Position numbers and translations under genes: made by a program. This document shows, one piece after another, positions 380 to 3,174 of a stretch of 3,174 bases of DNA (the first letter of the stretch is position 1; every line of letters begins with the position of its first letter). The notes beneath the pieces are model-generated. The model did no database searches. It worked only from the letters and a program-made list of their open reading frames with translations, and was not told where the DNA came from. Origin of the DNA: Escherichia coli (GTDB lineage Bacteria; Pseudomonadota; Gammaproteobacteria; Enterobacterales; Enterobacteriaceae); NCBI RefSeq assembly GCF_024298765.1, contig NZ_CP101217.1. The stretch is one strand, 5' to 3'.

Positions 380-775
380 TTAATGATGATCTGGGCTTGT
401 TTCAAGATCGAGCCTGATTGCCTTAAGTTTCTGTAATATATTGTCTTTTGGGTATCTCAGTTCGCCTGTTTTTGTGTCCACTAGTCCGGCCTCGATCAGT
501 AACCCCGCCGCAAGAAACAGGCGGTGATTGCGTTCCCGTCGTTGTGTTTTCCCCTCCATCCGTTTTTGGTTGGCCTGTTTGCGTGCGTTCTCCTGTGCCT
601 GTAGCTCGTTTTTTTCTGCGGTTGCCAGGACGTGGAGTAGTTTGCGCTCCTGTTCTGTTAGTCCGGCTTCGTTATCGAGCAGGTCAATGATCTGCCTCTG
701 TCGTGCGGTCTGTTCTCCGAGCTTCCTGATAAAGCCGATTCGTTTCTTCAACCAGTCGATGTTGCTGATGCGCAT
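380..775 (-). CDS. mobC: MobC-like relaxosome accessory protein (131 aa)
   Basis: Minus-strand ORF, ATG at 775-773, stop TAA (complement of 380-382). AGGGAG Shine-Dalgarno on the minus strand about 10 nt upstream of the ATG. Divergent from the relaxase gene across the oriT region, as in IncQ mobC-oriT-mobA. The motif KTQRRERNHRLFLAAGLLIEAGL resembles the RSF1010 MobC motif as recalled (ERKNETRRKVLVGAMILAKV). The six-frame track extends the ORF to a GTG at 895 (171 aa), which would run through the oriT palindrome; the ATG at 775 with its RBS is preferred. Confidence 0.7.
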   Translation of the reverse strand: MRISNIDWLKKRIGFIRKLGEQTARQRQIIDLLDNEAGLTEQERKLLHVLATAEKNELQAQENARKQANQKRMEGKTQRRERNHRLFLAAGLLIEAGLVDTKTGELRYPKDNILQKLKAIRLDLETSPDHH

Positions 776-799
776 GTTTGGGATGCTCCCTGGTGTTTT

Positions 800-850
800 T
801 TGCGGTGTGTTGGGGTTGTGCAGTATATCGCTTGCGGTGGGTGGGTGCAG
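800..850. repeat. GT-rich direct repeats TTGCGGTG-N-GTGCAG (two copies) in the mobC-mobA intergenic region
   Basis: TTGCGGTG at 800-807 and 832-839, each followed by GTGCAG (818-823 and 845-850), 32-bp period. The plus strand here is strongly G+T skewed. Lies between the mobC start (775) and oriT. Confidence 0.4.
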
Positions 851-882
851 GGGGGTATCTTCCGTGCTAATTCGTAAAATTA

Positions 883-940
883 GCAGGAAGCGCACTTATA
901 TGTTTCTTCGCCGTTGGCTCAGAAACATGTGCGCTCCTGC
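883..940. other. oriT: origin of transfer (oriT), MOBQ/RSF1010-like, with candidate nic sites
   Basis: Inner inverted repeat ATGTTTCT (900-907) / AGAAACAT (921-928), with GCC/GGC pairing inside the spacer; compare RSF1010 arms CCAGTTTCTC/GAGAAACCGG (recalled). Outer imperfect inverted repeat GCAGGAAGCGCAC (883-895) / GTGCGCTCCTGC (929-940). Minus strand reads AGAAACAT-ATAAGTGCG|CTTCC (plus coordinates 898-886), matching the RSF1010 nic core TAAGTGCG|CCCT 8 of 8. Plus strand reads AGAAACAT-GTGCG|CTCCTGC (929-940), a shorter match. An additional small hairpin TGCTAATT/AATTAGCA lies at 865-885. Confidence 0.7.
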
Positions 941-954
941 GGAGGGCTAACACC

Positions 955-1908
955 GTGGCAACCTATCACCTCAATGTAAAATTTGGCGGCAAGGGACAGG
1001 CCGGAAACCATGCCGATTACATCGAACGCAAAGGCGAGTACGAGAAACGAAAAGATCTGGAATACTCAGAGCACGGGAATATGCCAGGCTGGGCGCGAGA
1101 TAATCCCTCCCATTTCTGGCAAGCGGCTGATCAGTTTGAACGTGCGAATGGTTCGACTTATCGGGAGATCGAAATCGCCTTGCCGCGTGAACTGACACCG
1201 GATCAGCGCATTGAACTGGTGCAGGATTTTGTGCGTCAGGTAGCTGGAGAACGGCACGCCTATAGCTTTGCCATTCACAATCCAAAAGCGAGCATTGACG
1301 GAGGGGAACAGCCTCATGCGCATATCATGATGAGCCAGCGTATTAACGATGGTATGGAACGTTCGCCGGAACAGTATTTCCGGCGTTATAACGCCAAGAA
1401 TCCCGAACGGGGAGGCGCAAAAAAAGATTCAGGCAATCTGACACCGACTCAGCAAAAAGAGCAATTGCGGACGTTACGGGCGAGCTGGTCAGCGTTACAG
1501 AACGAGCATTTAGCGCGTCATGGTCACAGGGTGCGCGTTGACCATCGCTCACTGGAAGAACGCGGAATTAAACGCACGCCAGAACGGCATTTCGGATTTG
1601 CCGCCTCATCACGGCTTGATCATGCGCAGCGCCGCGAAATCCTGCAAAACCGAGCGCAGCCGCTCGAACATTTTCTAGAGAAAGCGCATTCGGTTCGCCA
1701 TCAATTTGATGCACAAGTTCAGCAAAAAGAGTTAGTTAAAACGCTTTTACAGGACGTCGCACGGGAGCGAGGGCACGCGCTTACGGCAAGAATAAATAAA
1801 ACAGGTGAAGTTGAATTTGAACGTGCGCCAACGCGGACGCGGAGTAACACGCGAGGGCACGGCATGGGCATTCGTGACAACTCACGCGGGTACGACTACG
1901 AACGTTAA
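955..1908 (+). CDS. mobA: MobA relaxase, MOBQ family (317 aa, relaxase domain only)
   Basis: GTG start at 955 preceded by GGAGGG (941-946, 8-nt spacer); stop TAA 1906-1908. N-terminus MATYHLNVKF...HADYIERKGEY parallels RSF1010 MobA MAIYHL...ADYIQREGKY (recalled). Conserved motifs: ADYI (candidate catalytic Tyr22), REIEIALP, the His cluster H108...PH121AH123IMMSQRIND (candidate metal-binding triad), RYNAKNPERGGAKK, and VDHRSLEERGIKR. Confidence 0.9.
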   Translation: MATYHLNVKFGGKGQAGNHADYIERKGEYEKRKDLEYSEHGNMPGWARDNPSHFWQAADQFERANGSTYREIEIALPRELTPDQRIELVQDFVRQVAGERHAYSFAIHNPKASIDGGEQPHAHIMMSQRINDGMERSPEQYFRRYNAKNPERGGAKKDSGNLTPTQQKEQLRTLRASWSALQNEHLARHGHRVRVDHRSLEERGIKRTPERHFGFAASSRLDHAQRREILQNRAQPLEHFLEKAHSVRHQFDAQVQQKELVKTLLQDVARERGHALTARINKTGEVEFERAPTRTRSNTRGHGMGIRDNSRGYDYER

Positions 1909-1919
1909 AAGGGGACTGT

Positions 1920-2450
1920 ATGGCGAGTACAGAAGAGGGGTTGCTCACGCTCTTGTTGTCCGTTGAGCATTTGAAAAACACTGCGATAGAACAACAGAAA
2001 GCGGTTGCAGACACGCTGGCGGTCGCAAGGGAAACACTGCGGGGGTATCGGGATATTTCTGACAGTGTTGTAAAACAGGTTAGCGATGAAGTCAGAAAAG
2101 GGGTACAGAAAACGGACATTGCGGGGCTGATGGGTGAGCGCATGACCCAGGATTTTCAGCGTCTTGAAGAGACTGTGGCAAAGATGAGAGCCAACGCGGA
2201 GGCGCTTAACAAGGACATTGCGACAATTCATCACAATGTTGTTAAAGAATACAACACGCTCAATAAATACAGTCTGAAATGGTTTATCGGTGTTACGGTC
2301 AGTTTTCTGGTCATGTTCTCGTTGCTTGGCTGGTTTACCAAAACGTTGATCGACAGGAACTACACCGCGACGGAGGTCGTGTATCAGAAAATTGTTGATA
2401 TTGAAAAGAAACTGGACAAACCAGCAACAGGGAAGAGCCGGAAAAACTGA
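1920..2450 (+). CDS. mobilization-associated membrane protein, possibly MobB-like (176 aa; coiled-coil N-terminus, single C-terminal TM helix)
   Basis: ATG at 1920 lies 11 nt after the mobA stop, with AGGGGA RBS-like sequence at 1908-1913 (GGGGA centred about 8 nt upstream), implying operon coupling. Residues ~1-118 are charged and heptad-like (E/K/Q/A-rich). Hydrophobic segment WFIGVTVSFLVMFSLLGWF (aa 121-139, nt 2280-2336) is followed by a short basic tail. The antisense 200-aa ORF (1905-2507) has junk-like composition. Functional assignment is by position and by analogy with the membrane-associated MobB of IncQ plasmids, not by recognised sequence identity. Confidence 0.7.
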   Translation: MASTEEGLLTLLLSVEHLKNTAIEQQKAVADTLAVARETLRGYRDISDSVVKQVSDEVRKGVQKTDIAGLMGERMTQDFQRLEETVAKMRANAEALNKDIATIHHNVVKEYNTLNKYSLKWFIGVTVSFLVMFSLLGWFTKTLIDRNYTATEVVYQKIVDIEKKLDKPATGKSRKN

Positions 2451-2475
2451 CGCGCTTCGCTTGTCCAACGCCTCA

Positions 2476-2502
2476 CGGGACGCGAAAAAATTCCGCGTCC
2501 CG
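2476..2502 (+). terminator. candidate hairpin terminator downstream of the mobA operon
   Basis: 9-bp GC-rich stem CGGGACGCG (2476-2484) / CGCGTCCCG (2494-2502) with a 9-nt A-rich loop, 26 nt after the ORF stop. The downstream T-tract is interrupted (TTCACCGTTTTCT), so intrinsic-terminator assignment is weak; it could instead be a structured single-strand site. Confidence 0.35.
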
Positions 2503-2703
2503 TTCACCGTTTTCTGATGAGAAAGTTTGCCGTTTTGACCCGTTCGGTGCTCAGATTTGGCGAAATTGATTCCGAATCACTTTTGTGAATAGTTATGCAA
2601 GCCCCTGGAAACGTTTCTGACGCGTTTTTTGAGGTAGGGGTGGGGGAAAGCATGGTTTTTTGATGTTTTGAGCGTAAAAGCGTGAAAAATCGCGTTATTG
2701 TGC

Positions 2704-2732
2704 TTGCGATCTTTCGTCAGGGAGCGTAGAAC
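2704..2732 (+). promoter_or_regulatory. candidate sigma70 promoter for a plus-strand primer-like transcript (RNAII analogue)
   Basis: TTGCGA (2704-2709), 17-nt spacer, TAGAAC (2727-2732). It sits immediately upstream of an A-run plus hairpin (2734-2757), similar to how the ColE1 RNAII 5' end overlaps the RNAI terminator. Hexamers are only 4 of 6 matches to consensus. Confidence 0.2.
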
Positions 2733-2733
2733 G

Positions 2734-2757
2734 AAAAAAGCCCGCCGTTAGGCGAGC
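2734..2757 (-). terminator. rho-independent terminator, minus strand
   Basis: Minus-strand RNA would read GCUCGCC-UAAC-GGCGGGC followed by UUUUUU. 7-bp stem with one G-U wobble, which is a C-A mismatch in the plus-strand transcript, so the structure is strand-specific. The U6 tract corresponds to plus A2734-2739. Confidence 0.5.
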
Positions 2758-2860
2758 TTCTTCGGGTTCATTGAGGTTTTCGACCTCCTCAATGTTCCTG
2801 TGGAGTCTGTTGCGGCGACAACGGAAACCAGTTCATTCAGTTTGCATGAACCTTCTGTAT
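2734..2860 (-). ncRNA. candidate antisense regulatory RNA (RNAI-like), boundaries approximate
   Basis: Upstream of the minus-strand terminator (on that strand) are two more hairpins: CATTGAGG/CCTCAATG (2769-2794, 8-bp stem) and GTTCAT/ATGAAC (2831-2851, 6-bp stem). Three stem-loops ending in a terminator within ~120 nt resembles ColE1-type RNAI architecture. No confident promoter found; the 5' end is not defined. Overlapping ORFs in this region look non-coding. Confidence 0.25.
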
Positions 2861-3174
2861 TCTTCAAGCATTACCGACCGCACAGCCTCCCCAGAATCCC
2901 GAAAAAATCCTGTTTTTGCAGATGATTGCGTGTTTGCAAAGACCGTTTGCGGTTGGGGGAGCTGTGACGACGGCAACCGCACGCGTGAGAGTTCCGCTAC
3001 CGGCGCAGAGAGTTTCATCGACAGCGGACACCTGATGAGTTGCCACAAAAACCGTATGTAGCGCGGCTAGATTGGTTGAGTTAGACCTTGGCGGCAGTTC
3101 CCGGTATGTGGTGGCGTGACGGGTGAGATGGTGCGGCGAAGACGCATACGTCACGCAGGCGCGGGTTCTTCCAC

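Follow-up and report, generated by a model that had tools for sequence, protein, structure and literature searches.

The best described counterparts of the locus examined here are found in RSF1010/R1162, in Ti plasmids and in the MOBQ4 plasmids. The relaxase substrate of RSF1010 reads CAGTTTCTCGAAGAGAAACCGGTAAGTGCG/CCCTCCC (the slash denotes the nick), with ...GGTAAGTGCG/CCCTCCC as the core part (PMC4814116, Table 1), and the consensus of the MOBQ origins of transfer (oriT) has been given as NWACCNNTAAGTGCGCCCTYNN (PMC3832669, quoting Francia et al. 2004). In the Dtr region of Ti plasmids, the oriT, the core of which is related to that of RSF1010, is located between 2 divergent operons (traAFBH <- oriT -> traCDG; PMC4700958), and the title of a study in the reference list of that paper states that TraA, TraC and TraD autorepress 2 divergent promoters near oriT (Cho and Winans 2007). 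The MOBQ4 plasmids, such as ColE9-J and pIGWZ12, contain divergent mobC and mobA genes with the oriT in an intergenic region of ~178 bp (Garcillan-Barcia et al. 2019; PMC6856555). Here, we have examined a relaxosome accessory gene, its start codon and the adjacent oriT in a stretch of 3,174 bp from Escherichia coli (contig NZ_CP101217.1), which we refer to as the window and which corresponds to a complete circular plasmid of the MOBQ class that has already been deposited.

We found that the accessory gene starts with the ATG codon at position 775 on the minus strand, as already annotated, and that the 40 codons upstream of it are non-coding and represent oriT, a promoter-like region and the 5' untranslated region (UTR). 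A preliminary description of the window had noted that the open reading frame (ORF) continues upstream of this ATG to a GTG at position 895, and had preferred the shorter form of 131 amino acids. The longer ORF is indeed present at positions 380 to 895 on the minus strand and comprises 171 amino acids from a GTG start codon (895-893). The 40 added residues were exactly as quoted (MRFLLILRISTEDTPLHPPTASDILHNPNTPQKTPGSIPN), followed by MRISNIDWL... from the ATG codon. The preference for the shorter form was borne out by the position at which protein conservation starts, by frameshifts and termination codons in the extension of related plasmids, and by the RefSeq annotation.

An alignment of homologues, which the preliminary description had proposed as a check, showed that conservation starts at residue M41 of the long form. 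A search with the 171 amino acid form identified 200 relatives, 21 of which were included in an alignment (A1). Residues M41, R42, I43, and S44 were nearly invariant in this alignment, whereas residues 1 to 40 were missing from 13 of the 20 other members and were not conserved where present. An exhaustive search against 1.84 billion representative proteins yielded 128 matches, and nearly all of those with 30% to 54% identity (117 to 190 amino acids long) paired residues 41 to 49 of the query with their own residues 1 to 10, as exemplified by P0125 (41-158 aligned to 1-117), P0135 (41-154 to 1-115) and P0161 (44-160 to 4-119). Earlier starts were observed for only 3 weak matches (P0175, P0176, and P0196). 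Furthermore, an alignment of 64 distant homologues (A3), of which the window protein is not itself a member, revealed a motif conserved at the N-terminus, M-x(3-7)-W-L-x2-R-x2-Y-x2-G-L, beginning a few residues past the Met of each protein. The extension is thus not conserved as protein in homologues with identities down to ~30%, which have their own starts at, or a few residues from, Met 775.

The translation signals were in agreement with this start. No Shine-Dalgarno sequence or other ribosome-binding site was found upstream of GTG 895, as the preliminary description had stated, and the best duplex with the anti-Shine-Dalgarno sequence was -2.1 kcal/mol at this codon versus -7.4 kcal/mol at ATG 775, where the motif is GGGAG (Table 1). 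The 131 amino acid product is annotated in RefSeq as WP_001222910.1 in sister plasmids, although the gene was left unannotated in the record that is identical to the window, and a protein of 131 amino acids with 99% identity to the product from ATG 775 (P0036) was present on 257 contigs. The finding is in this sense an ordinary one, and the annotation of the 131 amino acid form was already known.

To follow the extension at the nucleotide level, we compared the mobC-oriT-mobA regions of 19 plasmid records and 5 genome contigs. The intergenic DNA, taken in the mobC sense, was also aligned with that of 12 relatives, some of which were only 68% identical (A2). The spacer between the GTG and the ATG codons differed in length among these sequences (Table 1). 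In the variant with a spacer of 119 nt, the frame of the ATG is closed by a termination codon 30 codons upstream, and no start codon is located between the two. Five sequences of this type (L003, L004, L023, L024, and L025) are complete plasmids of ~3.14 kb from Shigella, Salmonella, and E. coli that encode the identical 131 amino acid protein WP_001222910.1. In another variant, the spacer is 120 nt as in the window, but a change of frame affects the middle 17 codons, such that LHPPTASDILHNPNTPQ in the C6+A6 sequences becomes CTRRPQAIYCTTTTHRK in the C5+A7 sequences. A coding segment would not tolerate these frameshifts, the change of frame and the upstream termination codons in the more distant relatives, and we therefore conclude that the extension does not encode protein. 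Neither of the 2 homopolymer tracts is located inside the spacer of the promoter-like element or between the Shine-Dalgarno sequence and the ATG, which fits with free variation in length.

A scan of the genome collection with a 20-nt oriT core retrieved only 5 loci, 3 of which were informative (L020, L021, and L022). It was also noted that the core was present in assemblies labelled as a Candidatus Paceibacterota metagenome-assembled genome, Pseudomonas dryadis and Xanthobacter autotrophicus (L020, accession JAHEOE010000120.1, and L018/L019), the latter 2 being very short contigs with a coverage below 1. These occurrences look like contamination with enterobacterial plasmids rather than true hosts.

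The composition of the extension accounts for its open frame. The mobC-sense strand of positions 776 to 895 contains only 17 T in 120 nt, and 25% to 29% of the mono- or dinucleotide shuffles of these 120 nt were free of termination codons. Upstream of the ATG, none of the 3 frames contains a stop for at least 30 codons. The segment is thus free of stops only because the strand is poor in T, and the open frame is no more than expected by chance, that is, a compositional artefact over the oriT, the promoter and the 5' UTR. The substitution pattern, counted within each haplotype group, was likewise that of non-coding DNA. The variable sites at codon positions 1, 2, and 3 were 2, 2, 3 and 1, 5, 5 in the extension, for which the counts are small, versus 10, 12, 39 and 13, 9, 31 in the core gene, and the ratio of nonsynonymous to synonymous polymorphism (pN/pS) was 0.45 to 0.87 in the extension versus 0.04 to 0.24 in the core gene. 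The "synonymous" divergence between the window and L006 was ~4-fold lower in the extension than in the core gene (0.099 versus 0.400), and it was ~3-fold lower within the C5+A7 group. Low divergence without a bias in codon position indicates constraint at the nucleotide level, as is typical of a cis-acting site and not of a protein.

An invariant part of this segment is the nick-site core, in the center of which the GTG codon is located. The sequence TAAGTGCGC (898->890) matches the MOBQ nick core at 9 of 9 positions and did not vary among the 12 aligned relatives, even those with 68% identity, and the core in the window is identical to the nick core of RSF1010 and to that of the MOBQ consensus. 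The invariance of GTG 895 is explained by its being part of this core, with no need for a role in translation. A single base separates the core from the inverted repeat at positions 900-912/916-928, which lies 5' of it, and the minus strand reads ...GCAGGAGCGCAC-ATGTTTCTGAGCC-AAC-GGCGAAGAAACAT-A-TAAGTGCG/CTTCCTGC... By analogy with RSF1010, the nick is predicted to occur between positions 891 and 890 on the minus strand. The right arm of the inverted repeat stops 9 nt short of this position, in line with the distance of ~8 nt that is used as a criterion for MOBQ. The CCCT that directly follows the nick in the consensus (...GCGCCCTY) was not found in the window, which has G/CTTCC, a variant that is common to the whole lineage.

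The single strand from 945 to 880 folds as a long hairpin of -21.3 kcal/mol (z = -7.4), in which the outer arm at 890-895 (gcgcac) pairs with 929-934 (gtgcgc). GCGCAC is thereby placed opposite the GTGCGC of the nick core, leaving an ATAA bulge. Across the 12 relatives, 90.5% of the cells in the alignment of the hairpin pairs were paired, but these were mostly invariant pairs, such that covariation provides no information. In the canonical picture of RSF1010, the nick site is single-stranded and located 3' of the hairpin. It had been suggested in the preliminary description that the longer frame overlaps with the oriT palindrome. This holds for the extended palindrome at 883-940, the outer arm of which contains the GTG codon, but not for the main inverted repeat, which is located just outside the ORF. 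The suggestion was also too narrow, in that the GTG is part of the conserved nick core as well. Two versions of the top of the oriT hairpin were observed, GAGCC-AAC-GGCGA and CTCGACGAAGGAG, which do not follow the mobC haplotypes and hint at recombination inside the cassette.

A strict scan for sigma-70 promoters at positions 700 to 1000 gave no candidate on the mobC strand. With a lax scan, a single candidate was obtained on the mobC-sense strand, ending 46 nt upstream of the ATG (Table 1), and its -10-like TATACT was invariant even in the relatives with 68% identity. Judging from the sequence of this weak element, transcription may start near position 815. This is ~80 nt downstream of GTG 895, which would be located outside the mRNA if the element is used.

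Taken as a whole, we consider it very probable that the gene starts at ATG 775, that the extension is non-coding DNA holding cis elements, and that the GTG codon belongs to the nick core; the start of the gene, the absence of coding constraint in the extension and the identity of the core sequence were all demonstrated in this analysis. Several observations nevertheless weigh against this interpretation. The 40-codon frame and its GTG are intact in most of the relatives with 85% to 88% identity, and the 171 or 172 amino acid form is emitted by some gene callers (P0001, P0026, P0043, and P0048). The promoter is weak, with matches at 3 of 6 positions in the -35 and 5 of 6 positions in the -10 element, and read-through transcripts that include the GTG may occur. 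Finally, the C6+A6 and C5+A7 combinations both restore a spacer of exactly 120 nt, a point that the interpretation leaves unexplained and that could be read as selection for an open frame. One rival explanation is that the plasmids with 120-nt spacers produce a minor isoform of 171 amino acids from GTG 895, which would couple the synthesis of the accessory protein to the state of the oriT, for example via transcripts reading through the nick region. In addition to the window, 15 of 25 loci, including both 120-nt haplotypes, retain an intact frame and GTG, and automated callers sometimes choose the long form. However, such an isoform would lack a Shine-Dalgarno sequence, its middle 17 residues would be wholly different between the haplotypes through the change of frame, and its frame is missing from 5 complete plasmids with an identical core protein and interrupted by upstream stops in the more distant homologues, without any coding signature. 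With the GTG accounted for by the nick core and the only promoter-like element located downstream of it, we regard the long isoform as very unlikely. The same low probability applies to a low-abundance long isoform, or translation across the nick region itself, that modulates relaxosome assembly or the expression of mobC or mobA in the 120-nt lineages, in which case the 2 independent tract combinations that restore 120 nt would be more than a coincidence.

The 3 natural combinations of the C5/C6 and A6/A7 tracts, which give spacers of 120, 119, and 120 nt, could also be taken as slipped-strand switches that toggle the long isoform by phase variation. Tracts of 5 to 7 nt are short for efficient slippage, however, and each combination is fixed per lineage: the 5 plasmids of ~3.14 kb are all C5+A6, and the lineage of the window (L001, L002, and L026, with at least 98% identity to the window) is uniformly C6+A6 with no mixing. 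Moreover, the "ON" states encode different peptides, and since every argument against the long isoform also applies, a switch of this kind is extremely improbable. A third explanation, which complements the non-coding interpretation and needs no reading frame, is that the indels restoring 120 nt reflect selection on the distance from the nick site or inverted repeat to the promoter or gene start. The recurrence of 120 nt in 2 haplotypes would agree with this, as would the 110-nt spacer of the distant lineage, which is shorter by 10 bp, or about one helical turn. On the other hand, plasmids with 119-nt spacers are widespread (5 complete ones in Salmonella, Shigella, and E. coli), and the spacer in L020 is 86 nt, indicating that any constraint on spacing is loose. 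The recurrence of 120 nt may then be due to coincidence or shared descent, and we consider selection on spacing rather unlikely, albeit worth bearing in mind.

Table 1. Coordinates of the features in the window and variants of the spacer between GTG 895 and ATG 775
Feature	Position	Strand	Details
Relaxosome accessory gene ("mobC" by position; TraD_Ti-like by homology)	380..775	-	131 amino acids + stop; ATG 775->773
Stop-free 40-codon "extension"	776..895	-	Non-coding: 5' UTR, promoter-like region, nick-site side of oriT
Shine-Dalgarno GGGAG	786..790 (790->786)	-	10 nt upstream of ATG 775; conserved in alignment A2
A6 homopolymer tract	796..801 (801->796)	-	A7 in many relatives; A2 and tract survey
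Sigma-70-like element	822..849	-	TGCACC (849->844), 16-nt spacer, TATACT (827->822)
C6 homopolymer tract	850..855 (855->850)	-	C5 in many relatives; A2
Small perfect inverted repeat TGCTAATT/AATTAGCA	865..885		Largely conserved in 68%-identical relatives
oriT inverted-repeat structure	883..940		Inner arms 900-912/916-928, outer arms 883-895/929-940
RSF1010-type nick-site core TAAGTGCG/C	890..898 (TAAGTGCG = 898->891)	-	GTG 895->893 at its center
MOBQ relaxase gene mobA	955..1908	+	317 amino acids; GTG start; GGAGGG at 941-946; annotated WP_001360358.1
Hypothetical gene	1920..2450	+	176 amino acids; directly 3' of mobA; WP_000168766.1
Spacer 120 nt, C6+A6			Window, L001, L002, L006, L026; long frame open
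Spacer 119 nt, C5+A6			L003, L004, L023, L024, L025, also L018; GTG out of frame
Spacer 120 nt, C5+A7			L005, L007-L011, L016, L019, L022; open, middle 17 codons in other frame
Spacer 110 nt, tracts not applicable			L012, L013, L014, L021 (~68% identity); TAA two codons upstream of ATG
Spacer 86 nt, tracts not applicable			L020; GTG out of frame; stop 11 codons upstream

The gene product had been described as MobC-like, which is true for its position and presumed role only. The position of the gene is that of a mobC gene, divergent from mobA with the oriT in between, but none of the 64 distant homologues matched the Pfam family MobC (PF05713), whereas 51 of them matched TraD (PF06412) with a best E-value of 2.7e-18 (P0164 at 2.1e-11). 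Against the gathering score of 22.3 bits for PF06412, P0161 and P0164 obtained 39.4 and 43.9 bits, while the window protein itself did not match. In phmmer searches, the window protein matched, with E-values of 3.5e-11 to 1e-4, proteins that pass the PF06412 threshold. Its assignment to the TraD family is accordingly transitive and not direct, and the TraD-like part is the region around RRERNHRLFLAAGLLIEAGLVDTKTG, which is preceded by a conserved helical region of ~70 amino acids at the N-terminus. No Pfam match was obtained for the 171 amino acid form at E <= 0.1 or for the 131 amino acid form at E <= 10, and NCBIfam contained no family for the ORF; weak matches to SCO2400 and PRONE were far under the cut-offs and were discarded.

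An AlphaFold2 model of the 131 amino acid form, built on alignment A3, had a mean predicted local distance difference test (pLDDT) score of 96.3, with confidence from residue 1. The model is all-helical, with helices at residues 5-18, 24-34, 41-95, and 110-126. Accessory proteins of the Pfam MobC (PF05713) type have a ribbon-helix-helix fold, in which an N-terminal beta-strand is followed by 2 helices. A fold of this type was not predicted for the window protein, the model of which has no N-terminal strand. A sequence-profile search against the PDB gave no significant result, and Foldseek identified no match to the fold at E <= 0.001.

We propose that translation from ATG 775 produces an all-helical protein of 131 amino acids, and that positions 776 to 895 are non-coding DNA that contains, from the gene outwards, the Shine-Dalgarno sequence and 5' UTR, the weak promoter-like element, the small palindrome, and the nick core at the far end. 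By analogy with RSF1010, the MOBQ relaxase MobA would recognize and cut at TAAGTGCG/C, and the core would be conserved for this purpose. The Ti plasmids suggest a role for the accessory protein, which may bind within 776-895, possibly at the palindrome at 865-885, a candidate binding site or operator. Once bound, it might help MobA to open and nick the oriT, and might also autoregulate the divergent genes.

The plasmid contains 3 genes: the relaxase gene, a gene for a hypothetical protein of 176 amino acids, and the accessory gene on the minus strand, divergent from mobA. The window is 100% identical to plasmid pLHC5-1-3k of Citrobacter werkmanii (NZ_CP084293.1) and to pTB508 of Salmonella, both of which were typed as MOBQ and mobilizable by MOB-suite. 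The mobA product matched the Pfam family MobA_MobL (6.2e-37) and, in NCBIfam, TraA_Ti (2.2e-30, the best match) and MobQ (6.4e-26), the latter 2 under the full-length cut-offs. The MobA protein is 317 amino acids in the window versus 308 amino acids (a coding sequence of 927 nt) in most of the relatives that share the accessory gene (L003-L011 compared). The 176 amino acid protein has no family assignment, and its sequence reads as coiled-coil-like in the N-terminal part, with a hydrophobic segment (FIGVTVSFLVMFSLLGWF) after it. Its ORF is retained beside mobA in relatives, and the protein could be a membrane-anchored partner similar to MobB.

The mobC-oriT-mobA cassette was found with 85% to 100% identity on at least 3 backbones, namely Rep-less plasmids of 3.1 to 3.2 kb, Col156 (ColE2-like) and rep_cluster_2131 (window positions 380-2450 compared with L005-L011, L016, and L026), which indicates that the mobilization module moves between replicons. 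The window plasmid itself contains no Rep gene and has no replicon type in PLSDB, and an Rfam scan of the whole window gave no match, RNAI included. Its non-coding block at 2460-3174 was 88% to 90% identical to plasmids of 3372 bp and to a plasmid of 1395 bp (CP066327.1), the latter consisting almost entirely of this block. This suggests that positions 2460-3174 and 1-380 may represent a protein-free, uncharacterized minimal replicon. A run of 13 consecutive A was noted at 168-180, in non-coding DNA upstream of the stop side of mobC, and the total length of near-identical records varied by 1 to 3 nt (3171 to 3175), which may be due to homopolymer tracts such as this one.

The results fix the start codon of an accessory gene that is unnamed but widespread among small enterobacterial MOBQ plasmids, and have little import beyond annotation hygiene. 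The spurious 171 or 172 amino acid form produced by gene callers runs into the oriT, which serves as a warning. The analysis may also be of modest use to plasmid annotators, in that a "hypothetical protein" can be described as belonging distantly to the Ti-type TraD family, and identity to RSF1010 allows the nick site to be located.

Among the known systems, the MOBQ4 plasmids have the same layout and enterobacterial hosts, with an intergenic region of 179 bp in the window, and relatives of the mob module in the window reside on the same Col156 and rep_cluster_2131 replicons. ColE9-J (L017), although unrelated, shares the GCGCAC...ATAAGTGCGC arrangement, with ATAAGTGCGC on the mobC-sense strand flanked by GCGCAC...GTGCGC. 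However, a blastn comparison of the mob region in the window with ColE9-J revealed no similarity, and the MobC protein of ColE9-J is only 91 amino acids and unrelated to the 131 amino acid protein. The catalytic residues of the MOBQ4 relaxases are Y25, E87/E89, and H125/H133/H135 (PMC6856555), a numbering that does not fit the MobA protein in the window, for which Y22, E71/E73, and H108/H121/H123 were read from the translation. Based on the direct comparison with ColE9-J, the classification of the window as a MOBQ4 plasmid was rejected.

The resemblance to RSF1010/R1162 (IncQ, MOBQ1) is in the oriT and its surroundings: the nick core TAAGTGCG/C is identical, the inverted repeat is located directly 5' of the core on the nicked strand (CAGTTTCTCGAAGAGAAACCGGTAAGTGCG/CCCTCCC in RSF1010 and ATGTTTCTGAGCCAACGGCGAAGAAACATATAAGTGCG/CTTCCTG in the window), and the oriT separates a gene for a MobA_MobL relaxase from a divergent accessory gene. 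The 2 systems differ in that the window has CTTCC instead of CCCTCC 3' of the nick, a gap of 9 nt rather than 8 nt between the repeat and the nick, and outer arms that can pair with the nick core itself. In addition, the accessory protein in the window has no match to Pfam MobC, and the relaxase is only 317 amino acids without a primase fusion. Compared with the Dtr region of Ti plasmids, the window lacks traC, traG, and the quorum-sensing tra-box partners, its protein is under every Pfam threshold and has an extra conserved helical region of ~70 amino acids at the N-terminus, and the host is an enterobacterial mobilizable plasmid of 3.2 kb. Yet, 51 of the 64 accessory homologues match the TraD family (PF06412), the best NCBIfam match of the relaxase is TraA_Ti, and, as in the Ti plasmids, the accessory gene adjoins an RSF1010-like oriT and a gene for a MOBQ relaxase of the TraA/MobA type.

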